DNA from: a bacterium
GTDB taxonomy: Bacteria > Zhuqueibacterota > Zhuqueibacteria > Oceanimicrobiales > Oceanimicrobiaceae
Direction: 5' to 3'
Assembly: GCA_046757025.1 (NCBI GenBank)
Contig: JBHHXN010000026.1
Location: 1 to 42,267 of the forward strand
DNA length: 42,267 bases
Position numbers and translations under genes: made by a program. Below are positions 1-20,810 of the stretch, piece by piece (the first letter of the stretch is position 1; every line of letters begins with the position of its first letter). Under the pieces are notes generated by a model, which was given only the letters and a program-made list of their open reading frames with translations, ran no database searches and was not told the origin of the DNA.

Positions 1-920
1 ATCAAGGTGATGTTCACCGGAATGTATTCCGGAATGCTTTCACCGTCGATGAGTCGTTTCGCATTTTCCACCGCCAGCCGACCCATTTCCGAAGGAAACT
101 GAGCAACCGAGCCGGCCATCAGATCCTTTGCGATGGCTTCGCGTGCGTCGCTCACCGCATCGAAACCGACCACGACAATTTCGTCGGTTTTCCCCACAGC
201 CGCGATGGCCTCAATGGCCCCCAGCGCCATCAAATCGCTGCAGGCAAACAGCGCCTGCACGTTTGGATGCGATTGCAAGATATTCTGAAACACGTTGAAG
301 CCTTGATCCCGCTCCCAGTTGGCGGTTTGCGAGGTCACAATTTCAATGCCCGGCACGCGATCCACCACCTGATGAAATCCACGCAATCGGGAATCACCGG
401 TTTCATGGCCCGGGATGCCTTCGAGGATGGCGACTTTGCCCTGCCCGCGGAGCCTTTTGACGAGGAATTCGCCGGCGATTTTACCGCCTTCAAAATTGTC
501 CGAACCGATAAAGGTGGCGACTTTGCCGCCGGCTTGGGCCAGGGTCAGTGAATCCACCCGCGTATCCAAAATCAAAACCGGGATGCCCATTTGATTGGCT
601 TTGATAATGGCCGGTACGATTTCCTTGGAACCGCTGGGGGTGACGCAAAGCGCGTCCACTTTGCGTTGAATCAGGTTTTCAATGATCTGCATCTGTTTTT
701 CCACGTCCACTTCGCGTTCGGCGGCCTGCACCAGCAAATTGACGTTCAGCGCTTTTGCGGCTTGCTCCGCGCCGTTCTGCATGTCGATAAAAAACGGATT
801 GTTCAACGTCTTCATCACCAGTGCAATGGTGGGGCCATTGTCGGTTTGCTTTTCCCCTCTTTGACAGCCAGCCAACAACAAAACCAATCCGGCTATCGCA
901 GCAATTTTAGTCATTTTCAT
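1..920 (-). CDS. Sugar ABC transporter substrate-binding lipoprotein, RbsB/Peripla_BP_4 family (3' end runs off the window)
   Basis: Not in the ORF track; translated by hand from the ATG at 920, with GGAGG upstream: MKMTKIAAIAGLVLLLAGC (lipobox) ...IALVMKTLNNPFF...FIGSDNFEGGKIAG...ANWERDQG...DLMALGA...VVGFDA. Follows the rbsA- and rbsC-like genes. Confidence 0.9.
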   Translation of the reverse strand, partial: MKMTKIAAIAGLVLLLAGCQRGEKQTDNGPTIALVMKTLNNPFFIDMQNGAEQAAKALNVNLLVQAAEREVDVEKQMQIIENLIQRKVDALCVTPSGSKEIVPAIIKANQMGIPVLILDTRVDSLTLAQAGGKVATFIGSDNFEGGKIAGEFLVKRLRGQGKVAILEGIPGHETGDSRLRGFHQVVDRVPGIEIVTSQTANWERDQGFNVFQNILQSHPNVQALFACSDLMALGAIEAIAAVGKTDEIVVVGFDAVSDAREAIAKDLMAGSVAQFPSEMGRLAVENAKRLIDGESIPEYIPVNITL

Positions 921-1030
921 CAAGCTTTCCTCCATTCAGTTATCATTTTTGACTCCGGTTAAACAGGGTTTTCAACCTTTAGTTTGCGGCAGCCAGAACA
1001 CCCTCCCGCATTTCAGTTTGTAGAATTCGA

Positions 1031-1978
1031 TTATTTTCTCGCTTTTTTTAAGGCCATATCCATCAACACGGCTGCGATTATCACCGTGCCGATAATAGTT
1101 TGTTGAATAAAAGACGAGACGCCCAGCAAATTAAGTCCGTTTCGCAAAACGCCCATTATGAGGGCGCCGATGAGCGTGCCAAATATCGTACCTTCGCCGC
1201 CCATCAAACTGGTGCCGCCGATAACCGTAGCGGCGATGGCATCCAGCTCATACATGATGCCGGCGATGGGTTGAGCAGAGTTCAGCCGGGCGGTCAGAAT
1301 AATGGCCGCCAACCCGCTCAGCATTCCACACAGACCGTAAACCAAACTTTTGTAATATTTGACATGGACTCCCGACAAACCGGCCGCTTCTTCATTGCCG
1401 CCGATGGCATAGGTGTAGCGGCCTAATTTTGTTCGGATCAATACAAAATGCGCCATCAGGTAGATGGCCAGCATGATGATCACCGGCAGGGGAACGTGCA
1501 GTATCTCGCCGCTGGCCAGGAACCGAAAATCCTCCGAAAAGCCAGAAACGGGCCGGCCCTGGGTGTAAAGCAACGCCGCGCCCCGGGCCACGCTCATCAT
1601 CCCCAGGGTGGAAATAAACGGCGGTAAATGACCGTACGTGATGAGCAGTCCATTGACGAGGCCGCTCAGCAACCCCACTGCTAACCCAATGAGCAACGCA
1701 ATGGGCAGCGGCACGCCCGCTTGCAGCGCGCTGGCCAAAACCACTCCGGAAAAGGCCATCACCGAACCCACGGACAAATCGATACCAGCCGTAATGATCA
1801 CAAAAGTCATGCCCACCGCTATGATGGCATTGATGGAGGTCTGCTGGGCAACGTTGAGCAAATTCGATACAGTTAGAAAATAAGGCGACAAAATCCAGAA
1901 GACCACGGACAACCCGATCAAGCCCATCAGGGTGCCGAACTGACGGCCGTAGTGCAGCAGCAGATCTTTAATTGACAT
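1031..1978 (-). CDS. rbsC: Sugar ABC transporter permease, RbsC family
   Basis: Hydrophobic protein with GIDLSVGS, GRYTYAIGGNEEAA and YELDAIAATVIGGTSLMGG motifs; overlaps the end of the ATPase gene. Confidence 0.9.
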   Translation of the reverse strand: MSIKDLLLHYGRQFGTLMGLIGLSVVFWILSPYFLTVSNLLNVAQQTSINAIIAVGMTFVIITAGIDLSVGSVMAFSGVVLASALQAGVPLPIALLIGLAVGLLSGLVNGLLITYGHLPPFISTLGMMSVARGAALLYTQGRPVSGFSEDFRFLASGEILHVPLPVIIMLAIYLMAHFVLIRTKLGRYTYAIGGNEEAAGLSGVHVKYYKSLVYGLCGMLSGLAAIILTARLNSAQPIAGIMYELDAIAATVIGGTSLMGGEGTIFGTLIGALIMGVLRNGLNLLGVSSFIQQTIIGTVIIAAVLMDMALKKARK

Positions 1979-3470
1979 GTTCCTCCCCTAAAGCACATCG
2001 CAGAATCTTCTCTTGACTGGCCTCTTCCCGTAAAAATTCGCCGCGGATTCGGCCCTGGTTCATCACTAAAATGCGATCGCTCATGCCCAAAATCTCCGGC
2101 AGCTCCGAAGAAATCATGATGATGGCTACGCCGTTTGCGGTAAGCTGGTTCATCAATTGATAGATCTCCACTTTCGAGCCCACATCGATGCCGCGGGTGG
2201 GTTCGTCAAAAATGAAGATATCCGCCTGACAGCACAACCATTTACTCAACACCACTTTTTGCTGATTGCCACCGCTCAAAAACAGGACCTGCTGATTTAA
2301 GCCCGGTGTTTTGATACGCAGCTCTTTGACATAGCGGCTGGCCAATTGAGCTTCTTCCTTTTCCCGAACAACGCCGAATCGTACAAGTTGTTCGATGCTG
2401 GGCAGACAAATGTTTTGCTTGACTGACAGCACCAACACCAGACCCTGATTTTTTCTATCTTCCGTTAAAAAACCCATACCGAGATTGATGGCGTGCCGAG
2501 GTGATTTAATTTGCTGCGCTTTTTGTTTCACAAAGATTTTTCCCGAATCGATTTTATCCACGCCAAAAAGCGCCCGTGCCAGCTCGGTACGACCGGAGCC
2601 TAGCAGACCCGCAATGCCAAGTATTTCACCGCGGTGCAGCCTAATATTGATGTCCTGTAAAACGCCCTTACGGTACAAATGCTCTGCTCGGAGAATTTCT
2701 TCCCCCCGGGTGACTTTTTGTTTTGCAAACTTCTCCTTCAGCTCCCGATCTACCATCATGCGAATGAGCGCCGGTTTGTCCACTACGCTGATTTCATGGG
2801 AGCCGACGTATCTGCCGTCGCGCAGCACGGTCACGCGATCTCCGATCTCGAACAGCTCCTCCAAACGATGCGAAATATAAATGATGGACACCCCTTTACT
2901 CCTTAATCTGCGAATAGCAGCAAACAATTCCTTAATTTCGTGTTCGGTAAGCGCAGAAGTGGGCTCGTCCATGATCAGAATTTTAGCGTCCAGGGATAAC
3001 GCTTTCGCGACTTCCACCATTTGTTGCTGAGCCACACCCAAATTCTTCACGACCTGACGAGCATTTATGGCCACTCCCAGCTCATCCAGAATTTTTTGTG
3101 CAGAGTCGAAAAGCGATTGTTGGTCAATGATGCCAGAAAACACCATCGGTTCCCGGCCGAGAAAAATATTCTCACCGGCTGACAAATGAGGGATGAGGTT
3201 AAACTCTTGATAAATGATGCTGATGCCAAGCGCCAGCGCGTGTTTGGGATGATGTATCTCTGTTTCACAACCTTCGAGAAAGATTTGACCGCTGGTTTTC
3301 TTGTAGGCCCCACTCAAAATTTTCATGAGGGTCGATTTGCCAGCGCCATTTTCACCCAGCAGAATATGCACTTCGCCTTTTCTCAGCTCGAAATGCACCC
3401 GGTCAAGCGCCACCACCCCCGGAAAGATCTTTTGAATATTCTGCATCCTGAGAATTAAATCGTTATCCAT
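1968..3470 (-). CDS. rbsA: Sugar ABC transporter ATP-binding protein with tandem ATPase domains, RbsA family
   Basis: Walker A GENGAGKST, ILIMDEPT, LSGGNQQKV and DEPTRGIDVG motifs. Confidence 0.92.
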   Translation of the reverse strand: MDNDLILRMQNIQKIFPGVVALDRVHFELRKGEVHILLGENGAGKSTLMKILSGAYKKTSGQIFLEGCETEIHHPKHALALGISIIYQEFNLIPHLSAGENIFLGREPMVFSGIIDQQSLFDSAQKILDELGVAINARQVVKNLGVAQQQMVEVAKALSLDAKILIMDEPTSALTEHEIKELFAAIRRLRSKGVSIIYISHRLEELFEIGDRVTVLRDGRYVGSHEISVVDKPALIRMMVDRELKEKFAKQKVTRGEEILRAEHLYRKGVLQDINIRLHRGEILGIAGLLGSGRTELARALFGVDKIDSGKIFVKQKAQQIKSPRHAINLGMGFLTEDRKNQGLVLVLSVKQNICLPSIEQLVRFGVVREKEEAQLASRYVKELRIKTPGLNQQVLFLSGGNQQKVVLSKWLCCQADIFIFDEPTRGIDVGSKVEIYQLMNQLTANGVAIIMISSELPEILGMSDRILVMNQGRIRGEFLREEASQEKILRCALGEEHVN

Positions 3471-3676
3471 GCGGTGGTTTCGTTAGATTCTACAAATAAA
3501 ATTCGCCGTTCAGTGTTGAGAAAGATGCCGATAAAATAGCACGCCGTTGCCTATCATTAAAATCAGGTAGTGGATGATCCAGGTCCAATCAAGTAAACTG
3601 AAAGTAACCATATATTACCTAAAATAATGAAATTGAGTTAAATAACAACCTGTTTTCGACGCCTTTTACAAAAATT

Positions 3677-4813
3677 TCAATTATTTGACGAAGCTGACTT
3701 CACACCATTGGCAAAAACCTGCAATTCGTCGCCGGCGATATCGGCCCAGGAATAAAAATGAAACGTTCTATCATCAGACATGGCCACGAACAATCCCTTT
3801 GCAAATACATCGCTAAGATTAGCATTCGTCACAGCGGAGCCATCGCTGTGGTTTGTGGCCAATTTCACGGTCTTCACCAGCTTATGCCTGTGTGGATTAT
3901 CTGCGGCACCTTCGCGTGTGAATATTTGAAACAGGTTGGTCTGCTGATCTGAGACAATGATATAGCCCGCGCCATCGCTCAGGTGATAGATAGAAATACC
4001 TTCGCGATCCCTCCTAAAGCCGTCCGTACCAAAGCAGGCCAATTCTTCGTTGGCATTTGGAACATCGGGATTTGCATGATATTTTCGGATACCAAAAAGC
4101 TCGTCCGAATAATAAACATAACCCGCCGCATCATCCACGGCTACGGCCTCAATCTCCCCCTCACCTCCGGCATTTTTGCCGCTCCACTCACCAAATGCGC
4201 GAACTCTGGTAAATTTAACTGAGCCATCGCCCGCGTCCTCCATTAAGTATTGCCATAAATAACCGCCCGATGGTCCCCGCTTTCTGCTCACGATGGCAAA
4301 AAAGGCGCCATCCTCTGGCCTTTTGTAAATAGCTATTCCCATAGGCCGGCGAAACTCCTCGCCGGCAAAAGCTTCAATACCACCGCCATCGATGAGCGCG
4401 AGAGTCGGCAGATGAAACACGTGGATTTTTTTGGCGTCGCGGTCGGTGGCCACCGCGATATCGATAACCTGCCCTCCCAGGTTGAATCCGTATTCCACAT
4501 CCACGTTGTTCAGCCGCTGCATACCCGACACCTGTTTGACGATTTTGCCATCCAGTCCAAATGCAAACAGAGACCCGCCCTTGTCGGTGCCCAAAACCAG
4601 GCTTTGTGCCGGATTCTGCGGATGAATCCAGATTGCCGGGTCGTCGGAGTCTTGATTCACGGGTTCCGTAACCACCAGCGGAGCGATGCGTTCGGTTTCC
4701 AGAATGGTTGCAGCATGGTCAGCGTCTTTTTTCTGACACTGGTTCAAAAAGAAAATCCCCAGGATCACAGCAATGGTAGAAATCGCGATTCTCACCAAGC
4801 TGTCATTTTTCAT
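3677..4813 (-). CDS. Beta-propeller 3-phytase, probably an exported lipoprotein
   Basis: DSDDPAIW, LGTDK, NNVDV, EIEAVAVDD, YSDE, DREGISIY, VSDQ and SDG motifs of Bacillus-type beta-propeller phytases. Likely start is the ATG at 4813 (MKNDSLVRIAISTIAVILGIFFLNQC, signal peptide ending in Cys); the track's alternative start is GTG 4840. Confidence 0.88.
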   Translation of the reverse strand: MKNDSLVRIAISTIAVILGIFFLNQCQKKDADHAATILETERIAPLVVTEPVNQDSDDPAIWIHPQNPAQSLVLGTDKGGSLFAFGLDGKIVKQVSGMQRLNNVDVEYGFNLGGQVIDIAVATDRDAKKIHVFHLPTLALIDGGGIEAFAGEEFRRPMGIAIYKRPEDGAFFAIVSRKRGPSGGYLWQYLMEDAGDGSVKFTRVRAFGEWSGKNAGGEGEIEAVAVDDAAGYVYYSDELFGIRKYHANPDVPNANEELACFGTDGFRRDREGISIYHLSDGAGYIIVSDQQTNLFQIFTREGAADNPHRHKLVKTVKLATNHSDGSAVTNANLSDVFAKGLFVAMSDDRTFHFYSWADIAGDELQVFANGVKSASSNN

Positions 4814-4836
4814 TGTAAATAAACAGAATAGGTGCA

Positions 4837-5745
4837 TCACGTATATTTTTGCATAATGAGCGCTTCCACCTCCGATTGCGGCCGGCGAATCGGACCCTCA
4901 GCCTCTAATTTTAAGCTGGTTACTGCCGCAGCCCAAATCGTAGCCTCTTGTGGTGAAGCCGTTAAACGTTTTCCGGCGTAGGCAGCAATGCAGGTGTCGC
5001 CGCGGCCGCTGCGCCCCACTAGCTTTCTGGGATAAAATCCCGCTTCATGAAACCGACCATCGTGATAAACCAGCAGCCCGTCCCGGTGAGTAAGCACGAT
5101 CTCATTTGGCCCCAGTGCCGCCAGTACCTGCGCCGCAGTTTTGATATCGGTCTTGCCGGTGAGGATTTCTGCCTCCACCGCATCGGTTTTCAGTAGATCG
5201 ATGTGTGGCAGAATTTCATTTTTTTGCGGCCAAAGCGCGTTTTTCAGTTTACCATCCGAACAGATAATTCGTACAAATCCCTGAACATCCGCTACAATAA
5301 GCGCATCTTTTTTTCGCAGTGCCTCGATCACTTCAAAGCTTACTTCCCCGCGTGTTGAAGCGTTGATAAGAAATATTCTGGATTCTATCTCTGCGATTTG
5401 GGATGGCGAGAAATTACCGGCGGTCTGGGTAACCGAAAGAATACGCTCATCGACATCGTCTGTGGGGTAGTCCAATCGCAAATGCGTGGACTTGGGGGTT
5501 TCGCATGCAAAAACTTCAACTCCGATTTCAGTCAGGGCCTTCACAACATGAAAATCCTCCCTTGCCAGTCGCGTGATAGCCGCGGTTTTCAATCCCATCA
5601 TGGCGCCCACATGAGCGCCATAGTTAAAGCCGCCACCATCAACCTGCCGGATTTCAGATGAAGACACGATAGTGTCTTTGGTGTAATTTCCGATTATCGC
5701 AAGATCGTAAAATTGGGATTTCGTTGCCATTCTCGTTTGCCCCAT
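4837..5745 (-). CDS. PfkB-family carbohydrate kinase, Thermotoga TM0415/IolK-like
   Basis: GNYTKD, GGG, ADVQGFVR, EAEILTG and GRSGRGDTC motifs. The GRxGRGDT variant and ADxQGFVR match my recollection of T. maritima TM0415 from the inositol locus. Confidence 0.8.
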   Translation of the reverse strand: MGQTRMATKSQFYDLAIIGNYTKDTIVSSSEIRQVDGGGFNYGAHVGAMMGLKTAAITRLAREDFHVVKALTEIGVEVFACETPKSTHLRLDYPTDDVDERILSVTQTAGNFSPSQIAEIESRIFLINASTRGEVSFEVIEALRKKDALIVADVQGFVRIICSDGKLKNALWPQKNEILPHIDLLKTDAVEAEILTGKTDIKTAAQVLAALGPNEIVLTHRDGLLVYHDGRFHEAGFYPRKLVGRSGRGDTCIAAYAGKRLTASPQEATIWAAAVTSLKLEAEGPIRRPQSEVEALIMQKYT

Positions 5746-7098
5746 TTAATCACTTACTTTAGCTCGCCATAAAGTGGCCGCTAAAATCATTGACACCACC
5801 GAAGCCCCGACCCAGAACAGGATAGCGCTGGAAAAATCATAGTGATTCACGCCGTCCACGACCGTCTTTCCCTGTTCAATTAGATGCCCGCTGATGGTAT
5901 CTTGCAGCGCCGCGCCCACATAACTGAAAACGCCGATAAAACCCATTGCCGCGCCGGCCGCTCTTTTTGGGGCAATATCGATGGCAAACAAACCGCCCAG
6001 AACCGCCAGCAGCCCGTTCAGGGTAAAACCGTAAACCACAAATGCCATGGCCAGCAATACGGGCTTATCTGCCGGACCGAAGAAAATGATGATCAGGGCC
6101 AATATTTCCACCAAACCAAAAAGCAGAGTCAAAGGCGGGCGCCTGGCATCAAACCACTTATCGGAAATGAATCCGTACGCGATGCTGCCCCCCACTCCCA
6201 CCAGCGCACTGAGGCCCACCAGACCGCCAGCCTCCAAGGCCGAATACCCTTTAGCTTCCTGAAGGTAAAAAATGCCCCAGCTATTGATGGCGTAGCGCGA
6301 AACGTACATGGTAGCGCTGGCCAGACCGAGAATCCAGATAGCTGGAAATTTTAACATGAGCAACTGAATTTTTTTGGTATTCAGGGCTCGAGTCTGGCTT
6401 TCCGGTATGGGCACACCGTGATCATTTCGCCAGTCCGCCACCGAGGGCAGACCCAGGGTCTGCGGTCGATCCTGCATAAAATGATAGACCGCCATGGCCA
6501 CAAAAATGCAAAAAATGCCAGGTCCCCAGAAACCCGCTTGCCAGCCAAATACCCCCACCAGCGCAGCCGAACCAAAAAACGTCAAGCCTTCGCCGATGTT
6601 CTGACCCGTACTCCAGATGCCATAGTATCTGCCGCGTTCACGTTTGCTAAACCAATTGGCCAGTGTCACAGCGCCTGTGGGCGCGCCGAATCCCTGGAAC
6701 CAGCCGTTAATTCCCCAGAGTGCCACCCAGAGCCAGAGTAAACCGGAGTGCCCCATGGCCAGGTTTATGATCGCCGTCGCTAAAATGCCTGTTGCAAAAA
6801 ATCGCTTAACATTGGCATGATCCGCTAAAAAGCCATTTACGAGCTTGCCAAAGGCGTAGCCATAGAAAAGCGCCGAACCGATAACGCCTAAATCATAAGC
6901 CGAAAACAACCCTTGATCTATGATCGGCTTTTTAACCACAGACATGCCCAGGCGGCAGGTGTAAACACAGCCATACCCCAGTGTGACCGTTAACAGTACA
7001 GCAAGGCGGTTGCGCTTGTATAACCGCTCGACTTCTTGCTGATTTTCAATGACAGGCTGATCTTTACCGCTTGCAAATAAACGAAGTGATAGCGCCAT
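5746..7098 (-). CDS. MFS transporter, organophosphate:phosphate antiporter (OPA; GlpT/UhpT/UhpC) family
   Basis: About 12 TM segments; GYGCVYTCR, YAFGKLVNGFLAD, NGWFQGFG, WFSKRERG, YVSRY and GAAMGFIGVFSYVG motifs typical of GlpT/UhpC. Confidence 0.88.
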   Translation of the reverse strand: MALSLRLFASGKDQPVIENQQEVERLYKRNRLAVLLTVTLGYGCVYTCRLGMSVVKKPIIDQGLFSAYDLGVIGSALFYGYAFGKLVNGFLADHANVKRFFATGILATAIINLAMGHSGLLWLWVALWGINGWFQGFGAPTGAVTLANWFSKRERGRYYGIWSTGQNIGEGLTFFGSAALVGVFGWQAGFWGPGIFCIFVAMAVYHFMQDRPQTLGLPSVADWRNDHGVPIPESQTRALNTKKIQLLMLKFPAIWILGLASATMYVSRYAINSWGIFYLQEAKGYSALEAGGLVGLSALVGVGGSIAYGFISDKWFDARRPPLTLLFGLVEILALIIIFFGPADKPVLLAMAFVVYGFTLNGLLAVLGGLFAIDIAPKRAAGAAMGFIGVFSYVGAALQDTISGHLIEQGKTVVDGVNHYDFSSAILFWVGASVVSMILAATLWRAKVSD

Positions 7099-7143
7099 GT
7101 TTGTATGAATCTTTTTTTAAATTAAGTAAGGAGATAGGACTAT

Positions 7144-7190
7144 TCCTCCGGTCGAAATATCCCCACACCAGCGTTCTTTCGACCGGAGGA
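7144..7190. repeat. Perfect 14-bp inverted repeat (stem-loop) between iolM and the MFS gene
   Basis: TCCTCCGGTCGAAA (7144-7157), 19-nt loop, TTTCGACCGGAGGA (7177-7190). Confidence 0.8.
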
Positions 7191-7215
7191 GCACTGCATT
7201 GAATTGTGCTTACAA

Positions 7216-8403
7216 TCAGGTAAAATATGTCACCGCGATTTTCACATCATCCCTTTCCGTTTGCAGCTTGAGACAGTTGGATTCCACATCCTCCAATCCA
7301 ATGGTTTTGGTCACCATTTTCGTCATATCCATGCCAGCGGCCATGCAACTGATGACGTTGGGAAAAGTACCGTGTCCTGAATGACCCTGAGCGCCCACCA
7401 CGTTGGCTCGCCGCACCTGCAGCACCTCGCCGGTCAGGTGAATTTTGTCGTCCGCCCGCGCCACCACCACCACAGTGGTGTTCACACCCCGGCCTTCCCA
7501 GATGATTCTTTCCACATCCGGCCAGACTACGCTAGGCAAACCGGTGGCTTCAAGGATGATCCTGGCACCCATGCCTTTGGTGATCTCTAACACCGCCTCT
7601 GCGGCATTGTCGCGCGTGGGGTCGATGGCATGGGTAGCGCCCATGGAGAGCGCCATTTCCCGCCGCACTGCCGAAGGTTCCGAAAGAATCACCGATGCCG
7701 CACCAGACTGACTTAACACCGCACAGGCGGCCACCCCGATGGGACCGCCCCCCAGGATCACCACATTTTCTCCAGCTCGGACGCCGCCGCCTCTTTCGAT
7801 CACTGCGTTGTAAGCCACGGAGGTGGGTTCCACAAGACTGCCCAGGAGTAGCATTTTTTCTTCGCCGTAAATTTCACGCAGACTCTCGAGACTCCATACA
7901 TAACGTGCATCTACTTTTATGTATTTTGCAAACGCACCATCCACAGAAAATCCAATTTCCTGTAAACGCTCGCAATGATTGGGGTAGCCGTCCGCGCAAG
8001 GTTTGCACTGCGCACACCAGGCCATTTCTTCCGCGCATACCGCTTCGCCGATCTCGAATCGTATGCCCGTGCGCTTATTGATGGCATCAATCCCTGCTTC
8101 CACCACTTTTCCAGAAAATTCATGGCCCAAGGTGACGGGGAAAGCGGTGAGACCGGGATAGAAAATGTAGCCATCTTCATCTGCCTGCCGCATATGCACA
8201 TCGCTGCCGCAGATGCCACAGGCTTGCACTTCCAGTAAAACCTCGGTTGGTCCGGGCTGCGGCATGGCTTTCTCCACCACCTCGATACGGGGATTTTTCC
8301 AGACTTTACTTCCCAGATAAGTCAGCTTCCCTTCGATATCTTTGGGACCTAATTTAAAATCGGGTTTTGGAGCCCAATCAGCTAAAAGTGTTGCGGTTTT
8401 CAT
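7216..8403 (-). CDS. iolM: Scyllo-inosose 3-dehydrogenase (Zn-dependent MDR family)
   Basis: Distinctive N-terminus FKLGPKDIEGKLTYLGSKVW, CGICGSDVH, GHE, structural-Zn Cys cluster, GGGPIG and QGHSGHGTF. Strong end-to-end resemblance to T. maritima TM0412 (IolM) as recalled. Confidence 0.88.
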   Translation of the reverse strand: MKTATLLADWAPKPDFKLGPKDIEGKLTYLGSKVWKNPRIEVVEKAMPQPGPTEVLLEVQACGICGSDVHMRQADEDGYIFYPGLTAFPVTLGHEFSGKVVEAGIDAINKRTGIRFEIGEAVCAEEMAWCAQCKPCADGYPNHCERLQEIGFSVDGAFAKYIKVDARYVWSLESLREIYGEEKMLLLGSLVEPTSVAYNAVIERGGGVRAGENVVILGGGPIGVAACAVLSQSGAASVILSEPSAVRREMALSMGATHAIDPTRDNAAEAVLEITKGMGARIILEATGLPSVVWPDVERIIWEGRGVNTTVVVVARADDKIHLTGEVLQVRRANVVGAQGHSGHGTFPNVISCMAAGMDMTKMVTKTIGLEDVESNCLKLQTERDDVKIAVTYFT

Positions 8404-8481
8404 AGTACCTCCAATATTTACTATGCATTAAAATAAGACAGTAACCCTGAATTACTCATACAAAAGCGAGCGAACGTGTTA

Positions 8482-8527
8482 GGTGTTCAGCCTTTAGGCT
8501 GCCTGGACACGCCGAAGCGTGAACACC
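8482..8527. repeat. REP-like doublet: two inverted 20-bp palindromic units
   Basis: GGTGTTCAGCCTTTAGGCTG ... CACGCCGAAGCGTGAACACC; a second copy lies at 14319-14378. Confidence 0.75.
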
Positions 8528-8598
8528 GAACGGGCTCTTCAAAATTCAGTTTTTCGATTTTGAACGTAAAATCCTGGTTTGTGAATAATACAAGTTAA

Positions 8599-9696
8599 TT
8601 ATTGATTGACCAATTGCAAAACCGAAGACCTCTCAACAAGATGAGATTTGAGTACTATCTTTTGAGGGGCGATGGATTCACCCTTTATGCGTGCCATGAT
8701 CAATTTCATGCTTTCCTGGCCCATTTCGTAAATTGGCTGGTGCATGGTCGTCAAAGCCGTGGGATGCGAATTGATGAACGGTAGATCGTCGTATCCCACC
8801 AAAGAAATATCATCGGGAATGGAAAGGCCCATCTCATGTGCCTCTGAGTAAAACAAGTAGGCAATGCGGTCGTTGCCGGTAAAAACGGCGGTTATGTCAC
8901 CTGCCTTGCGTAAGATAGTGCGCACGGACTCCCGGAAATGTTTCTCGACATACGGCGTTTTATCCGCGATGACGATGGACGAGTCAATTGGGATGCCATG
9001 TTTTTCCAGAGCATATTTGTAACCCGCAAGCCGTTTGGCTTCGGTGTTGTACAAACGGCTCAAGACCACCGCTATTTTTCTGTGACCGTTTCGGATGAGA
9101 TAGTCCGTCACTTCGTAACCGCCATCGAAATTGTTGGTGGTAACGAAGTCGCTCTGCGTTTGGGGAATTTCCCTATCCGCAATGACGACCTGGATATTAT
9201 TTCGGGTGAATTTTTCCAAAATCGTTCTATTCTGATCGTCGGTGGATGCGGTAGGTACAAAAATCACCCCGCTGACGTGATGTTCGATGAGGCGTTCCGC
9301 GTGAAAATCCGCTCTAACATACGAATCGTCTGTGTTGCACAAAATGAGGCTGTGTTTGTTTTTGGCGGCTTCATCGCCGGCCCCGCGCGCCAGCTCCGGC
9401 GCATACCCACTGCGGATGTCCGGTACCAGTACCCCCACGATAGTCTGCTTTTCCCGATTCTCTTCGCGATTGATGACAAAGGTACCCAGCCGCCGCTGAC
9501 GCGACAGGTAACCCAAATTTACCAGGTTCTGAACCGCCTGACGAATGGTGGCCCGGGCTAAACCGGTCATTTGTACTAATTCCTCTTCAGTGGGAATTTT
9601 CTCGTTCGGTTTGATGACGCCCTTTTCGATCTGCTCGATCAACCAGGTTTGCAGTTGAAAATACTGGGGAATGGGACTGTTTTTATCGATGATCAT
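8599..9696 (-). CDS. GntR-wHTH / LacI-type sugar-binding chimeric transcriptional regulator (AraR-like); probable inositol-locus regulator
   Basis: N-terminal PQYFQL...KIPTEEEL...RATIRQA...GTFV (GntR); C-terminal periplasmic-binding fold with GHRKIA, RLAGY, NDRIA, ISLVGYDD and LTTMHQP. Confidence 0.9.
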   Translation of the reverse strand: MIIDKNSPIPQYFQLQTWLIEQIEKGVIKPNEKIPTEEELVQMTGLARATIRQAVQNLVNLGYLSRQRRLGTFVINREENREKQTIVGVLVPDIRSGYAPELARGAGDEAAKNKHSLILCNTDDSYVRADFHAERLIEHHVSGVIFVPTASTDDQNRTILEKFTRNNIQVVIADREIPQTQSDFVTTNNFDGGYEVTDYLIRNGHRKIAVVLSRLYNTEAKRLAGYKYALEKHGIPIDSSIVIADKTPYVEKHFRESVRTILRKAGDITAVFTGNDRIAYLFYSEAHEMGLSIPDDISLVGYDDLPFINSHPTALTTMHQPIYEMGQESMKLIMARIKGESIAPQKIVLKSHLVERSSVLQLVNQ

Positions 9697-9713
9697 GAGA
9701 ACAGATTCTTTTT

Positions 9714-9733
9714 TTGTCTATTTGTATAGACAA
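9714..9733. promoter_or_regulatory. Palindromic operator, probably bound by the adjacent GntR-type regulator
   Basis: TTGTCTAT-ttgt-ATAGACAA (8-bp perfect arms). It contains TTGTATAGACAA, matching the GTNTANAC box of GntR-family regulators, and overlaps the predicted transcription start. Confidence 0.7.
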
Positions 9734-9761
9734 TTATACACCAATACCTTTAAAATGTCAA
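9733..9761 (-). promoter_or_regulatory. Consensus sigma70 promoter for the regulator/iol operon
   Basis: Minus strand TTGACA (9761-9756), 17-nt spacer, TATAAT (9738-9733): a perfect consensus. Confidence 0.85.
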
Positions 9762-9947
9762 GGGATTTAATGAAAACTTAACATTCATCTTTATTTTCAG
9801 CTTGCAGGCTCTTCTCCAGCCCGGTAACTGGATTTTTAACAGAGGGTTTTTCTTTGATTCATAGGCGAGGTGAGAAGCTTTGCAGCAGGTATGATTGAAA
9901 GCAGAAAAATCGAAATGACTTGCGAGATTTGTGTTATTACAGAAGAA

Positions 9948-10379
9948 TTATAACAAGTCAGGTGGGTGCCAGCCGGCCGATATCCAGTTTCGGCGGACCT
10001 CCACCGCAATCTCATTGTTAAGGCGCAACGCCGCAACCGTCGCTCTGCCAGTGGGCGTCCGGCCGGCAATATGTGTTCCTTTCTGTGCCCACTGAAAATG
10101 CTCTTTCCAGTTTTGAGTTCGTGGGTTAAACAGAGCCACGGTTTCACCACTCTCGGGATCGACAGCCATAATCTGAGCGCCTTTGCAGCGATTACAGTGA
10201 GGACACGAAAGCCACAGGTTGGATTCATCATCGCTGCCGCCTTTGGAACGAGGTATGAGGTGATCGATTTCAAACGTAATTGGGACAACCCTTTGTGGGC
10301 AGAGGCAGTAGCCACAGCGGTCTTGGGCAGATTCTCGAATGCGTTGACGAACCGAGTCCGGCACCTTGGACCCGCTCAT
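9948..10379 (-). CDS. HNH endonuclease
   Basis: RCGYC...FEIDHLIPRSKGGSD...NLWLSCPHCNRCK and a C-terminal LFNPR..W..HF...TPTGRAT...LRLN; ATGA overlap with the upstream gene. Confidence 0.9.
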   Translation of the reverse strand: MSGSKVPDSVRQRIRESAQDRCGYCLCPQRVVPITFEIDHLIPRSKGGSDDESNLWLSCPHCNRCKGAQIMAVDPESGETVALFNPRTQNWKEHFQWAQKGTHIAGRTPTGRATVAALRLNNEIAVEVRRNWISAGWHPPDLL

Positions 10380-11050
10380 GGTTGCAGGGGCTTTATGATG
10401 CGGCGTTTCACGGCCTCACGCAGCGCCTGCGATTTGCGAAGCAAACTGTGTTCGTAGATGCGCATGAGCTCATCGAGCTGCTGCTGCCCCTTGGAATCAA
10501 GCTCGCCTTCGCGGTTTTTCTGTAACAGCTCGTTTAACTTAGCCTGTTGTTCCTTGCTGAGCTGCAGTTCCGTCAGCTTCAATAATTCCTCATCCGACAA
10601 CATATCTACTGGACGATTGAGCCTTTCGATAATCTGCTGCTCGGCGATTTTAAGCAGACGTTGTATCTCTTTAGAAGAATAGGGGGGGTTAATTTTGAGT
10701 TTCTTTATCAACTCTAAATCTTCTTCTTCCCCCTGTTCGGCCATCCACCAGAGCGTCGTTCTGAGATTTTGTTCAGTTTTCGGAGAAAATAGCGTCAGTC
10801 TTCTTTCCATATTTTCAGAAATAGTCACTCGCTCATGCCATTTTTTTTTGATTTTGGGCCACCCTCCATTACTACAACTATAAGCTTCTTTGCTTAACTC
10901 TATCAAACACTCTCTTAAAACCATTGCGACAGCGAGTTCAAATTGTTGTCGTTTTTTGGGAACGATACTCTTTTTGGTTTCTGAAAGCAAGTTTTTTAAA
11001 TTTTGTAAATAAAAATCGACGATATCTTCGCCATTTATCATGGCATCCAT
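10376..11050 (-). CDS. Hypothetical protein with an unknown N-terminal region and a C-terminal helical domain like that of small proteins encoded upstream of HNH nucleases (putative antitoxin-like)
   Basis: C-terminal LSDEELLKL...LSKEQQAKLNELLQKNREGEL...LDELMRIYE..LLRKSQAL..AVKR; translationally coupled to the HNH gene. Confidence 0.65.
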   Translation of the reverse strand: MDAMINGEDIVDFYLQNLKNLLSETKKSIVPKKRQQFELAVAMVLRECLIELSKEAYSCSNGGWPKIKKKWHERVTISENMERRLTLFSPKTEQNLRTTLWWMAEQGEEEDLELIKKLKINPPYSSKEIQRLLKIAEQQIIERLNRPVDMLSDEELLKLTELQLSKEQQAKLNELLQKNREGELDSKGQQQLDELMRIYEHSLLRKSQALREAVKRRIIKPLQP

Positions 11051-11069
11051 CCTTATTATTTATTATTGT

Positions 11070-11468
11070 TCACTTTAGAATCTTTTCCACTTCTTCAGCC
11101 AATTCAAAAGGTAAATAATCTTCTTTTCTGAAAAAGTTACAATTGTCTTCTTTACGAAATCGTTGCAGCAACTGGTAATCAGAAACATTAGTCAGAATGA
11201 TCACAGGTAAATCGGGAGCAGCTTTTCTTATTCTTTCAAAAAAATGCACACCCGTCCGCAATCCTTCACGTGTATCCACCTTTTTAAAAATCGACCCGGG
11301 CGGCATCATGATATCTAAAATGAGAAGATCAATGCCATCTACGTTATTCTCAAAAAAGTGCCAGGCTTCATCCACATTTTTTTGAAAAACTACTTTATAA
11401 CCGCACAACTCCAGCTCTTTAGCGTAACTATCCATCTCCCTTTTTTCATCATCAAGGAAGAGTATCAT
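11070..11468 (-). CDS. Stand-alone response-regulator receiver domain
   Basis: ILFLDDE, LLILDIMMP (phospho-acceptor Asp), IILTN and FFRK; no output domain; overlaps the kinase stop by 17 nt. Confidence 0.9.
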   Translation of the reverse strand: MILFLDDEKREMDSYAKELELCGYKVVFQKNVDEAWHFFENNVDGIDLLILDIMMPPGSIFKKVDTREGLRTGVHFFERIRKAAPDLPVIILTNVSDYQLLQRFRKEDNCNFFRKEDYLPFELAEEVEKILK

Positions 11469-14226
11469 GAGGAACCTCCTTCAGTCTCTTGGGTATTATT
11501 ACCTGAAATTCCGTTGGTTTACTATTATTAGTAAGGACCAAATCTCCACCAAATTCTCTCATAATTTTTCTGGAAATGGTGAGTCCCAATCCCGAACCAG
11601 CCACGTTTTTGCTTTTAGCTTCTGGAGAACGAAACCCACTTTCAAAAATTTTCTTTTCCAATCCTTTTCGTATGCCTATCCCCCAATCTCTGAACTTAAT
11701 AACAATAGAATTTTTAGTTAATTCCGCATAAATTTCAATTTTAAACTTCGACGGCTCCCTCTCCGCGTATTTAATAGAATTAATCAGTAAATTATAAATA
11801 ACCTGATTGAATTTCGCTTTGTCAATATATAATATATCAATTTTGCGGATATCTGCCGGGTTGATCAAAATATTTGACGCATCAAATCCATCGTGTAAAA
11901 CAATTGGCTTTAACTGATTAATAGTTTTGATAATCACATCCCGGAATACGAGCGTTTTTTCAAATTTGGAAATGGGCGAAGGTCTGCCGAGGGCGTATTC
12001 CAAATCCTTGACTTGATGCAAAAGTAACTCGCAATCAGTGAGAATATCATCAAATTTTAGACGAATCAAAGCCGTTTCCAAATCATTGATGCGTCTTTGC
12101 AGAAAACTGGCATTACTCCTGATTCCGACAATCGCAGCCCTGAACTCATGACTGATTCGATCTATGAGTCCGCGTTGCCTTTGCTTTAAAGCCATAACCG
12201 TATAATCGACAAAACCCTGTAAAATTTGAATATCCTGCTCGTAAATAAATTCCCGGCTGTTTCTCTGATAACCCGCTTCAACCGTTCCAATCACTTGCTC
12301 ATTCGAAGAGTCGAGCATGGGAATAAATACCCGCAACAACTGGTCGCGGTTAAAGCGTTTTTGTATTTTGGGATCGAATCGTTTATCATCATTCGCGGGC
12401 ACTTCAATGTTTCGGGTTCGAACGATATCGGCCTGAATATTATCGCTATCCAGTGGATGATCGGCTAATTTTTTAAATGCTTCTACCTGGTTCTTGGGAA
12501 ATCCGAAAACGTATTCCGACTTAATGCAATTGAGCTCTGAATTCACCAAGGAGATATTGACATACTCATAGCCAAGGGTATCGGTAATCGCTTTTTGAAC
12601 GATTTCAAAGATATCATCCCAATCCTGCTTGCCAACAATTTCCTTTTGAATTTGAGCTAATTTAGTTAACTTACGATCAAATTCCAATCTTTCAATACGG
12701 ATGGCGGCATGGCGGGTAAGTGACCAGAGTATGTCCACATCGGCTTGTGAAAATGCCCGCTCCGTGGTACTTTCAATATTGAACACGCCAATCGTTTTGG
12801 TGCCGTATTTAATTTCCGTACCGACGCGCACCTCCGCTTTGTTGATCAAGATGGGGACCGCTAATTCGGAACGCGTGTCGGGCCAAAATTCTTCATATAT
12901 TTCTTTCCACTCGGGGCTTTTGACATTATCTACTTTAATGGGCTGCTCTTCCCGAAGCGTTTTGCCGGTAATTCCCAGCTCAATATTTAATGTGCGTAAA
13001 TTCGGTGGATTATCTCGATGGGCTAAGATATTCAATTGATTGGTCTTAAAATCTAAGGTGCTGATCCAGCCTCTTTTGCATCCGATGAGTTCCAGGCCTC
13101 TGTCGAGCAACAACTCCAAAAGTTTATCGGTTTGGCGCACCTCGGACATTTCCTGCATGATTTCATTGAGCTTTTCAAGCCGTTTGCGACTGGTGATATC
13201 CTCGGCCTTTTGAATCGACAAAGCCGCATAGTTGGCAAACGAACAAAAGACCTCCTTTTCCCATTCTTTGAAGTATCGTTTGGTTTTAGTATAAACATCC
13301 AGCATGCCGATGAGTTTGGTGGCCACCCGCATCGGCGCGCTTAGCAACGAAACCCAGCCTCTTTCTTTTGCTTCTTTACCATGCCCATAATTAGGATTGT
13401 CTTTGGTAACATCGGCCAGATAAGATACCTTCTTTTTTAAGTGTTGCTGAACACCGGAGGCATTTAAATCGAGCTCTATCCTTTTGAAATTTGCATCTAC
13501 ATTGCCTGTAGCCGATACGATCTTTAATTTCTCCTGCTTCTCATCTAACTTCCATACGATGCAAATTGGCACATCCAGTAATTCACAGGCCTTATTTGAA
13601 ACTTGCTGAAGAAAATCTCGTGGAGAACTCAAAAGTAGATTTTGTGAAATGGCGTTTAAAATGCTCGAGGATCGTTCAAGCAAGCGATAGTGCTCAAATC
13701 TTTCGATGGTGATGACTGCCTGATGAGCAAAAATCTGCAAAAGTTTTTTATCATTGCCGGTGAACCAGTTTGATTCAGGTGAAAAATGATTCAATCGTCC
13801 GATTAGCCGATCATTTGACATCAATGGACAGCTTAAAACAGAATCCAAATTATATTTTTTGGCGACCCTAGGATTCGCCACTCCCTGTCCATTTTTCTTT
13901 AATTTATTGATAACGATTGTATCATTTATTGCAAATTTTTCAAAATCCAGAATTTCTCCATTTTTTTCTAAACCCAGCTTTATTTTTTTCCCTGAAACCC
14001 GTTTCTCATACTCCTCGTCGAAACCAACACAGGCGACTTGCGTAAGATATTTGTTTTCAATATCCACAAATGTGAGGGTGCAAGCATAAGAATCCAAAGC
14101 ATCCTTACTGATTTCACAGATTCTCTTCAGAGCCTCTTTTCTGTTTTTATATTGCAGAGGTACTTCACTCAAGGCATTGAGCGAATTGATCAGATCAGGC
14201 CTGAGCCCCAGTCCAATTCTTAACAC
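11452..14226 (-). CDS. Soluble sensor histidine kinase with about 4 tandem GAF domains
   Basis: Repeated GAF signatures (SVLSCPL..IGRLN, SLLSAPM..LIGMLDV, SELAVPI..IGVFNI, VFIPM..VIGTVE); H-box SHEFR, N-box NLLINSIKY, DWGIGI and GSGLGL; no TM segments. Confidence 0.9.
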   Translation of the reverse strand: MLRIGLGLRPDLINSLNALSEVPLQYKNRKEALKRICEISKDALDSYACTLTFVDIENKYLTQVACVGFDEEYEKRVSGKKIKLGLEKNGEILDFEKFAINDTIVINKLKKNGQGVANPRVAKKYNLDSVLSCPLMSNDRLIGRLNHFSPESNWFTGNDKKLLQIFAHQAVITIERFEHYRLLERSSSILNAISQNLLLSSPRDFLQQVSNKACELLDVPICIVWKLDEKQEKLKIVSATGNVDANFKRIELDLNASGVQQHLKKKVSYLADVTKDNPNYGHGKEAKERGWVSLLSAPMRVATKLIGMLDVYTKTKRYFKEWEKEVFCSFANYAALSIQKAEDITSRKRLEKLNEIMQEMSEVRQTDKLLELLLDRGLELIGCKRGWISTLDFKTNQLNILAHRDNPPNLRTLNIELGITGKTLREEQPIKVDNVKSPEWKEIYEEFWPDTRSELAVPILINKAEVRVGTEIKYGTKTIGVFNIESTTERAFSQADVDILWSLTRHAAIRIERLEFDRKLTKLAQIQKEIVGKQDWDDIFEIVQKAITDTLGYEYVNISLVNSELNCIKSEYVFGFPKNQVEAFKKLADHPLDSDNIQADIVRTRNIEVPANDDKRFDPKIQKRFNRDQLLRVFIPMLDSSNEQVIGTVEAGYQRNSREFIYEQDIQILQGFVDYTVMALKQRQRGLIDRISHEFRAAIVGIRSNASFLQRRINDLETALIRLKFDDILTDCELLLHQVKDLEYALGRPSPISKFEKTLVFRDVIIKTINQLKPIVLHDGFDASNILINPADIRKIDILYIDKAKFNQVIYNLLINSIKYAEREPSKFKIEIYAELTKNSIVIKFRDWGIGIRKGLEKKIFESGFRSPEAKSKNVAGSGLGLTISRKIMREFGGDLVLTNNSKPTEFQVIIPKRLKEVPHDTLP

Positions 14227-14704: not shown

Positions 14705-15355
14705 TCATTTAAGCTCTCGCGCCGCAGAAATACTTCGATTCAGCATTTTCGCATTTTCAGTGAGCAAAGAATAATTCTCCTCCTGAATGGCCTGTTTATC
14801 CAGCAAGGCGCTGCCCACGCCCACGGCACAAGCGCCGGCCCGCAGCCAGTCACCGGCATTGGTCAGGGAAACGCCGCCGGTCGGCATCAGTTTCAGATGC
14901 GGCAGCGGGGCTTTCACCGCCTTAAAGAACGCCATACCCAGTACATCCGCGGGAAAGACTTTGACGATATCCGCTCCCGCTTCATGCGCCAGTTGAATTT
15001 CCGTGGGAGAGAAAGCCCCGGGCAGAGCGGGCACCTCCTGAGCGTGTGCCGCCTGAATGATGGCCGGTTTGAAAATGGGACTCACCACAAATTGCGCCCC
15101 GGCGTCGATGGCCTGGCGGGCGGTGTCTGCGTTCAGCACCGAGCCCACGCCCACCAAAACAATCTCACCCATAGCCCGGGCCAATTCCTCGATGGCCTCC
15201 AGGGCATTGGGCGTGGTCATGGTGATTTCAAGGGCGGAAATGCCGCCGGCATGAATGGCCTCGGCCACCCGCATGAGCTTCTCAGAGTCGCTCATCCGAA
15301 TGACTGCAACCGCTCCGCTGTCGAGCAAAGATTGCACTATTTTATCCCGTTGCAT
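14705..15355 (-). CDS. eda: KDPG/KHG aldolase
   Basis: VAVIR, LEITMTTP, GAQFVVSP, PTEI, VKVFPA (Schiff-base Lys) and MPTGGV motifs. Confidence 0.93.
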   Translation of the reverse strand: MQRDKIVQSLLDSGAVAVIRMSDSEKLMRVAEAIHAGGISALEITMTTPNALEAIEELARAMGEIVLVGVGSVLNADTARQAIDAGAQFVVSPIFKPAIIQAAHAQEVPALPGAFSPTEIQLAHEAGADIVKVFPADVLGMAFFKAVKAPLPHLKLMPTGGVSLTNAGDWLRAGACAVGVGSALLDKQAIQEENYSLLTENAKMLNRSISAARELK

Positions 15356-15397
15356 GGTTTTTCTGACCTCACAAGTAAGTGATTTTCTCTGACAGCT

Positions 15398-16483
15398 TCA
15401 TCTTTTGATTCGGGCGGACCCGCCCTTCATGACATGCCTCACTTCATCGAAGGTAACCATGCTGGTATCGCCGCGGGTGCTTTGCAGCAACGCACCGTGT
15501 GCGGCCCCGAGATTCGCGCATTCCTGCGGCGTCATACCATTTACGAAACCGTAAATCATGCCGCTGCAAAAGCCATCGCCGCCGCCCACCCGATCCTCGA
15601 TTTCCAGATTTTCGTAGCGCACCGACTCGTAAAACTGGCCGTCATAAAAAAGAATGGCCGACCAGTTGTTCCGCAATCCGCTCACTACCTCGCGCAAGGT
15701 TGTGCCCACGGCTTGAATATTCGGATACGTTTGCACGACTTCCGACACCATCCTTTTGTAATTTTCCACCGGCAGCGCTTTGAAGCTCTCATCGGTGCCT
15801 TTTACTTCAAATCCCAGCACTTTTTGAAAATCCTCTTCATTGCCGATCAACACGTTGATGTACGGCGCCAGTTGTTTGGTGGTCTGAATGGCCTTTTCGC
15901 TGCTCCACAATTTGCTGCGGAAATTCAAATCATAACTGACCACGGTGCCGGCCTGATGCGCTGCCTGCATGGCTTCTCTGGCCACTTCAGCACAGCCGTC
16001 GCTCAAAGCAGTAAAAATACCCCCGAGGTGAAACCACCGCACCCCGCGCTCGGTAAAAATTCGCTGCCAATCTATTTCTCCGGGCTTCATATTCGCGGCG
16101 GCGGAATGTCCACGGTCGTACATGGTGACGCTGGCGCGCACTCCCATCCCCACTTCGGTGAAATTCAAACCGATGCGATCGGCTTTGCCCACGCCATCGT
16201 ACGGCGCCCAGACCACTTCACTCAGATCCATGCCGCTCGCCCGAGCGTGATTTTGAATGAACCGGCCCAGCGGATTGTCCACCAGCCGTGAAATCCAGCC
16301 CGTGCGCAAACCGTAACGCGAAAGGGCGTACGCCACGTTGTATTCGCCGCCGCCGGCGTAAGCCTCAAAATAAGGAGTTAACTCGATGCGTTGATGCCCG
16401 GGGGGACTCAATCGAATCATGCATTCACCCAACGACAGCAAATCAAGTTCACACTCATTTTTCGCTTTAATTTTTAATGGCAT
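15398..16483 (-). CDS. kdgK: 2-dehydro-3-deoxygluconokinase (PfkB family)
   Basis: GGGEYNVA, YDLNFRSKLW, GNEED and DRVGGGDGF motifs; adjacent to eda. Confidence 0.88.
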   Translation of the reverse strand: MPLKIKAKNECELDLLSLGECMIRLSPPGHQRIELTPYFEAYAGGGEYNVAYALSRYGLRTGWISRLVDNPLGRFIQNHARASGMDLSEVVWAPYDGVGKADRIGLNFTEVGMGVRASVTMYDRGHSAAANMKPGEIDWQRIFTERGVRWFHLGGIFTALSDGCAEVAREAMQAAHQAGTVVSYDLNFRSKLWSSEKAIQTTKQLAPYINVLIGNEEDFQKVLGFEVKGTDESFKALPVENYKRMVSEVVQTYPNIQAVGTTLREVVSGLRNNWSAILFYDGQFYESVRYENLEIEDRVGGGDGFCSGMIYGFVNGMTPQECANLGAAHGALLQSTRGDTSMVTFDEVRHVMKGGSARIKR

Positions 16484-16509
16484 TTCAAACTCTCCTTACG
16501 ATTTATTTT

Positions 16510-17397: not shown

Positions 17398-17404
17398 GCT
17401 TTCT

Positions 17405-18688: not shown

Positions 18689-18768
18689 TTTTTTGATTTA
18701 ATTTATTTTCAATTTACATTAACCCGACCAGAAAGCCATTGTTTCTTTTATTCATCAGAAAGCATTCG

Positions 18769-20223: not shown

Positions 20224-20263
20224 ACTTCATTCTCCTATGTTTAAAATTGAAAAGTCCCTTCCA

Positions 20264-20770: not shown

Positions 20771-20810
20771 ATTAAATATTCTAATTCAGGTTTCAATCTA
20801 TTACTTTGTT

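Follow-up and report, generated by a model that had tools for sequence, protein, structure and literature searches.

The inositol operon TM0411-TM0416 of Thermotoga maritima, with the pyrophosphate (PPi)-dependent kinase TM0415 that it encodes, is among the closest described relatives of a gene run that we have analyzed in an uncultured bacterium of the phylum Zhuqueibacterota (assembly GCA_046757025.1). The run starts in a stretch of 42,267 nucleotides (hereafter the window), which is one whole contig (JBHHXN010000026.1) of a genome that is 94.8% complete. T. maritima was found not to grow on inositol (PMC3750489), and the regulator of its inositol operon ignored both inositol and inositol phosphate (PMC3553997). 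The Km of TM0415 for inositol is 12 mM, its describers doubt that inositol is the true acceptor, and the physiological role of PPi-dependent inositol kinases has been open since that description (PMC5931981). Use of phytate as a carbon and energy source, by means of a periplasmic phytase and inositol uptake, has been described in Mitsuokella jalaludinii (PMC7618129). The locus analyzed here resembles the Thermotoga operon in having IolM, IolN and IolO above their cut-offs, an IolG-like protein and a kinase of the TM0415 family, with UxaE also present in the genome, and these matches assign its catabolic core to the Thermotoga inositol pathway. Combined with a beta-propeller phytase and an antiporter of the OPA family (TC 2.A.1.4), this core is part of a real and conserved gene system found in several phyla, which probably serves the uptake and catabolism of inositol phosphates.

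The genes of the run lie consecutively on the minus strand. A regulator joining a GntR helix-turn-helix to a LacI-type sugar-sensing domain (8599..9696; PF00392 with PF13377/PF00532) is followed by iolM, coding for scyllo-inosose 3-dehydrogenase (7216..8403; NF041097, 493 bits against a cut-off of 450), and by a GlpT/UhpC-like antiporter of the OPA family recognized by profile matches (5746..7098). Then come a PPi-type ribokinase-family enzyme, placed by sequence, fold and signature residues in the homolog-49 subfamily of the TM0415 family (4837..5745), and a beta-propeller phytase with a predicted lipoprotein signal (3677..4840, likely start 4813; PF02333). A ribose-type ABC transporter closes the window portion of the run, with an RbsA-like ATPase (1968..3470) and an RbsC-like permease (1031..1978), both assigned by profile matches, and an RbsB-like binding protein (1..935) that runs off base 1 of the window and is a predicted receptor for free inositol. 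The preliminary description had read the first five genes (3677..9761) as co-directional, followed by a sugar ABC transporter, and open reading frame (ORF) positions together with profile and structure matches bear out both statements, with the rbsA-, rbsC- and rbsB-like genes at 3470-1. Its further claim that the run is tightly packed holds for antiporter, kinase and phytase (intervals of 0 and -4 bp, the latter a GTGA overlap) but not for most other junctions, which are looser: 195 bp between regulator and iolM, 117 bp between iolM and antiporter, 206 bp between phytase and rbsA, and 95 bp between rbsC and rbsB, with rbsA and rbsC overlapping (-11).

The run continues beyond the window. Read on the minus strand from its right end, contig C244 of the same genome carries genes for a 2-hydroxyacid dehydrogenase, an IolG-like protein, IolN and IolO. 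In four of four sequencing runs, a contig of equal size and depth covers window positions 1-1200 and reaches, after 39 further bases, into the end of C244; all four are hydrothermal-vent metagenomes from one study, two of which may be the source of the stretch, and they show the physical join rather than independent occurrence. The full order is thus regulator, iolM, antiporter, kinase, phytase, rbsA, rbsC, rbsB, dehydrogenase, iolG, iolN, iolO. IolN and IolO exceed their curated cut-offs (306 bits against 245 and 371 against 300), while the IolG-like protein, encoded directly before iolN, scores 343 bits with TIGR04380 (cut-off 355), by far its best family. The iolG-like gene, iolN and iolO, which the preliminary description had left to be looked for and whose absence would have refuted its reading, continue the same run. 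UxaE is encoded in the genome (E 4e-166), and no IolD was found above cut-off in this genome at its stated completeness. The closest relative (G012) has the same order, with extra genes inserted, across two contigs that each bear part of one TonB receptor gene, and both it and G030 retain the same gene set. The arrangement is not due to chance, as it was found again both in further families of this phylum and outside the phylum.

The PPi type of the kinase is the main point that the preliminary description missed. TM0415 structures match the kinase with E values of about 1e-47 to 1e-49, the next match being at 7e-5, and its structure model superimposes on 5ysq, 5ysp and 7e4l with Z 40.5 and a root-mean-square deviation of 1.7 over 277 aligned residues, compared with Z 30.5 for the next family. 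The PPi signature of TM0415 consists of K171, F221, R229, R232 and M266 and includes the motif RxGRGD (PMC5931981). Mapped by hand from the structure-homologue alignment, K186, F237, R245, R248 and D250 of the window kinase correspond to K171, F221, R229, R232 and D234, and K186, R245, R248 and D250 are invariant in all 91 subfamily sequences, a set that includes near-duplicates. Leu280 takes the place of M266 and is still a large hydrophobic residue (Met in 76 and Leu in 15 of the 91). By this signature, and by its membership in a subfamily with a tested homologue, the kinase is assigned to the PPi type. Assays have so far established PPi use and acceptor for TM0415 and for homologs 7 and 49 and for no others, and PPi-dependent kinases can be reversible, as with the PPi-dependent phosphofructokinase (PFK) and acetate kinase (PMC5931981).

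At the acceptor site, the equivalents of D11, Q141 and R145 are kept, whereas N78, S89 and L116 of TM0415 are replaced by L91, L103 and S130. Judged from these residues, the kinase is a TM0415-family enzyme of a different acceptor subtype from the myo-inositol 1-kinase TM0415 itself, and its Leu, Leu, Ser pattern at positions 78, 89 and 116 is that of homolog 49. Homolog 49, from Levilinea saccharolytica, uses PPi and not ATP or ADP; its products from inositol are three monophosphates, none of them Ins(1)P, and its true acceptor was judged to be something else (PMC5931981). As read by eye, the published homolog 49 gene carries the subfamily motifs, including an arginine at the position of Arg132. 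This arginine, at the place of Y118 in TM0415, is shared by all 91 sequences of the subfamily, compared with 2 of 26 sequences outside it. The kinase belongs to the family and is linked to the alternative inositol pathway, as had been proposed at the outset, but it is not among the four catalytic steps IolG, IolM, IolN and IolO. The direction of its reaction becomes the key question, because a catabolic pathway would have little use for a kinase working forwards.

The antiporter matches models of UhpC, PgtP and GlpT with E values of 4e-82 to 2e-72 and the GlpT structure 1pw4 with 1e-53, but it remains below every cut-off (GlpT, 245 against 633; UhpT, 152 against 497; UhpC, 277 against 564; PgtP, 165 against 750). 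The two substrate arginines of the family, R49 and R268, are invariant in 64 homologues, and in a quick tree of OPA proteins the subfamily sits apart on a long branch. We predict that it is an inositol-phosphate:inorganic phosphate (Pi) exchanger of an uncharacterized OPA subfamily. A dedicated clade of kinase-linked antiporters was considered and rejected, the quick tree requiring eight changes, with the careful search unfinished.

The phytase is matched by PF02333 (E 6e-43, 147.7 bits) and by the Bacillus phytase structures 3amr, 1h6l and 2poo (E 2e-29). Homologue N-termini suggest that translation probably starts at ATG 4813 rather than at GTG 4840, and in an alignment of 27 sequences all but one have the lipoprotein cysteine. 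Residues D66, K87, R134, E231, E247, D278, E280, Q299 and D333, which alignment with the Bacillus structures maps to the calcium and phosphate sites, are kept in 25-27 of the 27. The positions of the catalytic-site Tyr159 and of K77 in Bacillus are Met and Gly here. Four further propeller-phytase domains are encoded on other contigs of this genome (G000; C295, C126, C287 and C232), three of them in proteins of 553-1984 residues, and such multi-copy phytase-like domains are common in the class. A TonB receptor gene split into three ORFs lies behind a paralogue of the GntR-LacI regulator on contig C113 (13122-16107); it is not of the phytase-linked type, and it was rejected as the receptor of the module (34% and 27% identity).

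Conservation was surveyed in 167 genomes of the phylum, 35 of which match the kinase profile. Close kinase loci (at least 53% identity) number 17, one of them split over two contig ends, and distant ones 20; one 80-residue fragment was excluded. The antiporter gene is directly adjacent in 15 of the 17 close loci, the other two adjoining a glycerophosphodiester phosphodiesterase (GDPD) gene, compared with none of the 20 distant loci, where it lies within 5 kb in four. In 13 of the 15 antiporter-linked loci, a propeller phytase is encoded within about 10 kb or on an evidently continuing contig; one more has its phytase on a separate 3.3-kb contig, and for one no phytase was found. The co-occurrence that the preliminary description proposed to look for is found in other families of the phylum. 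A TonB receptor gene stands beside the phytase in most module loci, though not at the locus in the window. In three of the 15 (G138, G136 and G128), iolG is present without iolMNO in the vicinity, and IolN was not found in two of these genomes, which indicates that the front end is a separable module.

Reciprocal counts were made from the other genes. At the same identity threshold, 42 antiporter loci were found and 41 examined: 15 lie beside a close kinase, four near a distant one and three in iol clusters that a contig end truncates, and several of the remaining 19 are accompanied by GDPD and glycosidase-like genes. Likewise 34 phytase matches were obtained, comprising 13 in the module, three in the company of ABC or iol genes and a gene for a PafA-like phosphatase, two in module-like genomes on other contigs and ten with no iol genes nearby; six were left out. 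In three relatives that do not have the kinase-antiporter pair at the locus, the phytase and ABC genes have a PafA-like phosphatase gene as neighbor. Such PafA-like genes were found in 16 of the 20 relatives in the family, in one of the 15 module genomes and not in this genome, a distribution that fits two alternative ways of finishing dephosphorylation, albeit confounded by kinship.

Beyond the phylum, the best 79 of 522 confirmed metagenomic kinase loci were grouped into 44 clusters at 85% identity. Within this set the antiporter gene is adjacent in 23 clusters and a PhnS/Afu- or CUT1-type (phospho-sugar-type) ABC importer, labelled by tblastn at 1e-8 plus locus inspection, is present in 14; none has both, and seven are short or of other kinds. 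Propeller phytases were seen in three clusters, and in three an AppA-like histidine phytase takes the place of the propeller enzyme, many of the contigs being too short to display a phytase. One kinase of the AppA-like clusters is labelled Bryobacteraceae, and the ABC-type loci include Atribacterota and Bacillota labels. A single-protein scan of genome contigs gave only distant Bathyarchaeia-type matches (25-30% identity), which were not used, and a plasmid search gave two distant matches only.

Several other kinase arrangements were observed. Four loci (L047, L048, L049 and L084) combine a second TM0415-family subtype with a PhnP-like metallo-beta-lactamase and iolMGNO, without the antiporter, and this subtype may serve a cyclic inositol phosphate. 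A third subtype with the PPi signature (L072-L078, L081 and L082) lies among glycoside-hydrolase-like genes without iol genes, beside two large unknown ORFs that are conserved as a pair; its acceptor is likely different. In L069-L071, L118 and L125 a DUF6454 protein is encoded between or beside kinase and antiporter, where other loci place a phosphatase, and L109, L116, L122 and L099 have two different TM0415-family kinases per iol cluster.

Upstream of the regulator gene lies a putative sigma-70-type promoter (TTGACA-17-TATAAT; 9733..9761, minus strand), which matches the consensus at 12 of 12 positions and is the only such match within 900-10000; position 9761 is its start. A predicted GntR-family operator, recognized by motif conservation, follows directly after the -10 box (9714..9733, minus strand). 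Its motif is present upstream of six of seven orthologous regulators, the seventh being cut by a contig edge, and a genome search for the full 20-bp pattern gave this one site and no second full operator. The run is likely expressed as one autoregulated transcript, and the preliminary view that the phytase is under a sugar-sensing regulator agrees with this conserved operator at the promoter. A 14-pair RNA hairpin with no U tail lies between iolM and the antiporter gene (7144..7190, minus strand; z = -3.26, none of 200 shuffles as stable), and a repeat-like structured hairpin between the regulator gene and iolM (8450-8598, minus strand; z -2.81, 2 of 200 shuffles equal). These hairpins and the gaps of 195, 117 and 206 bp may leave scope for internal control.

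We propose the following route. A phytase outside the cytoplasm would trim phytate to lower inositol phosphates, which the OPA antiporter would bring in for Pi; the kinase would then run backwards, converting inositol phosphate and Pi to inositol and PPi. IolG, IolM, IolN and IolO would take the ring to tagaturonate, which would enter hexuronate metabolism via UxaE. PPi would be consumed by the membrane pyrophosphatase, PPi-type PFKs or pyruvate phosphate dikinase (PPDK), and the released Pi would leave by the same antiporter, so that carbon would be gained with no phosphate build-up, while free inositol would enter alongside through the RbsABC-type transporter. The genome encodes a membrane pyrophosphatase, PPDK and two PFKs with the GGDD (PPi-type) motif; neither family I nor family II soluble pyrophosphatase was found in it, a lack typical of the phylum. 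Gene identities, linkage, conservation and the PPi signature are the observed parts of this model, and we infer co-transcription, the transporter substrate, the reaction direction and growth on phytate. Most simply, the kinase would be the phosphate-removing step, since it travels with an importer of phosphorylated solutes and lies next to genes for a dehydrogenase that needs free inositol. The linkage of the complete route, the PPi signature, the close pairing of kinase and antiporter, the antiporter and ABC importers that exclude each other among the metagenomic clusters, the AppA-like replacement, the distribution of PafA-like genes, the 12 mM Km of TM0415 and the PPi-using enzymes of the genome also speak for the model. 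Rodionova reportedly found in 2013 that InoE of T. maritima binds inositol phosphate, which, if right, fits the reverse model. In our judgement, the case for the PPi-forming direction is evenly balanced, and we would give the whole model an equal chance of standing or falling.

A number of observations weigh against this model. On standard energies, the reverse reaction would be 5-11 kJ/mol uphill, which is a sketch and not a measurement, and favorable only if PPi or inositol is low; on the same energies it would turn favorable with PPi near 0.05 mM, Pi at 10 mM and no more inositol than inositol phosphate. The idea that genomes with the module specifically lack soluble pyrophosphatase was rejected, since the enzyme occurs in 4 of these 15 and in 46 of all 167 genomes. 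The antiporter subfamily also has members outside the system, 19 of its 41 examined loci lying away from the kinase family and from intact iol clusters; the kinase-linked antiporters do not form one clade, and H166 is Gln in this copy but His in 35 of 36 kinase-linked homologues. From the reciprocal counts, the kinase predicts the antiporter, but antiporter and phytase do not predict the kinase, and two close kinase loci have the GDPD gene without the antiporter. The genomes are kin and not independent, and the locus counts are no statistical test. Phytate breakdown by the propeller phytases of Bacillus ends at Ins(2,4,6)P3 (PMC11943157), and the described OPA substrates are monophosphates, inositol phosphates not being among those listed in the available portions of PMC9306846; no further phosphatase or TonB receptor gene was found at the locus. 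Either the carrier accepts InsP2-3 or unlinked phosphatases trim further. In a variant that we regard as speculative and rather unlikely, the kinase would itself be a PPi-forming inositol-polyphosphate:Pi phosphotransferase that strips imported Ins(2,4,6)P3 three times, giving up to three PPi per ring; the invariant Arg132 would hold the extra phosphate, and the 2-, 4- and 6-isomers would account for the three monophosphates of homolog 49.

Uptake and catabolism could be the same while SuhB or HAD phosphatases free the inositol and the kinase works forwards, making Ins(3)P for lipids or phosphorylating an intermediate or other cyclitol. This is a real though lesser possibility. The genome has two SuhB-like phosphatases, which could dephosphorylate irreversibly, and it has two Ino1 genes next to genes for CDP-alcohol phosphatidyltransferases that could use the forward product; HAD genes adjoin some kinase loci, the forward reaction is the only one reported in the available text of PMC5931981, and according to the title of PDB entry 7e4l, N78L/S89L, the pattern seen here, turns TM0415 into a 3-kinase. 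The SuhB-like genes, the Ino1 pairs and the 7e4l title also count against the PPi-forming direction. Yet the SuhB and Ino1 genes are unlinked to the run and in housekeeping context, a cell that imports inositol phosphate needs no re-phosphorylation, and a forward kinase leaves its tie to phosphorylated-solute importers of two unrelated kinds unexplained.

The inositol-phosphate theme could also be mistaken altogether: the ABC transporter and IolG-M-N-O would then form an operon for free inositol, the antiporter would carry glycerol-3-phosphate or another phospholipid head-group ester, and the phytase would be a passenger. The company of antiporter paralogues (GDPD and nuclease or phosphatase genes) favors this, as do the ten examined loci in which the same phytase clade stands alone or only with a TonB receptor, the four other propeller phytases of the genome, and family relatives whose iolMNO genes are accompanied by another kinase subtype and by a PhnP-like gene. 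We consider it improbable, given a kinase-antiporter adjacency that is near-invariant and persists across phyla while non-homologous phytases and importers are substituted, and an antiporter that misses the GlpT, UhpT and PgtP cut-offs by wide margins. Much less probable still is a phosphate-scavenging locus under Pho control with inositol genes as accidental neighbors, although propeller phytases are tied to phosphorus supply in soil bacteria (PMC9306846). A Pi antiporter yields no net phosphate by the established OPA mechanism, and a conserved operator occupies the promoter before a sugar-sensing regulator gene. The best match in the 250 bp upstream to a Pho-box consensus has 6 mismatches in 14 positions, which is a weak test.

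Other parts of the window and genome deserve mention. The minus strand at 14705-21599 carries eda, kdgK, a HAD gene, a LarA-family putative hexonate epimerase gene, gnd and a gene for a mannonate-oxidoreductase-like short-chain dehydrogenase/reductase, and these genes may supply the later steps of the same pathway as its downstream half; HAD and larA directly follow iolO in another genome (G017, L194), and HAD-PFK-larA-gnd flank the kinase loci L141, L148 and L157. Between the inositol run and these hexuronate genes lies a low-GC block (9948-14226, minus strand; 36-48%), which is probably an insertion; besides one unknown ORF it contains an HNH nuclease gene, an ORF resembling a response regulator and a large ORF resembling a sensor kinase. 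Further along (21826-42101, minus strand) are a TRAP transporter, kduI/kduD-like and nagA/nagB-like genes, several glycoside-hydrolase-like ORFs and transporters, which by their ORF translations make up a uronate/glycan utilization region. On contigs C249 and C42 of the genome, a block with aldehyde dehydrogenase-like, aminotransferase-like, rsmI-like, CDP-alcohol phosphatidyltransferase-like and ino1 genes occurs twice in diverged form, reflecting either a duplication or a contaminating contig.

In the literature searched, largely outside which subscription papers lie, we found no paper that brings together phytase, OPA carrier and PPi kinase. 'Thermotoga' is absent from the main text of a genome survey of iol clusters (PMC9430895) and of a 2025 review (PMC12482443), and a search of the available main text of PMC5931981 gave no mention of phytate, transporter or dephosphorylation. 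The preliminary impression of novelty therefore stands for the gene combination and its route but not for phytate as a carbon source: because growth on phytate carbon has already been described for Mitsuokella (PMC7618129), the novelty lies in the route and not in the lifestyle. A kinase working backwards, if true, would explain an enzyme whose role is open, and the locus supplies a candidate inositol-phosphate antiporter. If the model is true, uncultured bacteria of sediment, vent and soil (KSB1, Acidobacteriota, Atribacterota, Bacillota) use phytate carbon and return Pi to their surroundings, which would bear on phosphorus cycling. Should InsP3 stripping be true as well, the locus would hold the first bacterial inositol-phosphate antiporter found in the literature searched and, with Pi exchange and the membrane pyrophosphatase, a means of conserving energy from phytate phosphoester bonds.

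Set beside M. jalaludinii, the proposed route differs in its enzymes: the phytase of that organism is constitutive and unrelated, it takes up inositol by an inositol transporter, and no PPi kinase, OPA carrier or IolMNO is reported for it in the available portions of PMC7618129. The window phytase belongs to the same fold family as the Bacillus enzymes and shares most of their metal- and phosphate-site residues, but has a lipoprotein-type N-terminus and sits in a carbon-catabolic run; phytase-TonB receptor pairs, which relatives have, are missing from the locus. GlpT, UhpT/UhpC and PgtP are of the same OPA family as the antiporter, with the same two invariant arginines, yet it falls below their cut-offs and forms a separate subfamily. 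PMC12632266 supports the chemistry of IolO and a PPi-using 2-keto-3-deoxygluconate kinase. With TM0415 and homolog 49 (Nagata 2018, PMC5931981; 5ysp, 5ysq, 7e4l) the kinase shares its fold, RxGRGD and the equivalents of K171, F221, D11, Q141 and R145, and it departs from TM0415 in having Leu for M266 and the invariant Arg132 for Y118. Overall, relative to the T. maritima operon, the run adds the phytase and the OPA antiporter, its kinase differs in the acceptor site, and a ribose-type ABC transporter and a GntR-LacI regulator are found where T. maritima has InoEFGK and the ROK-family IolR (PMC3750489, PMC3553997).

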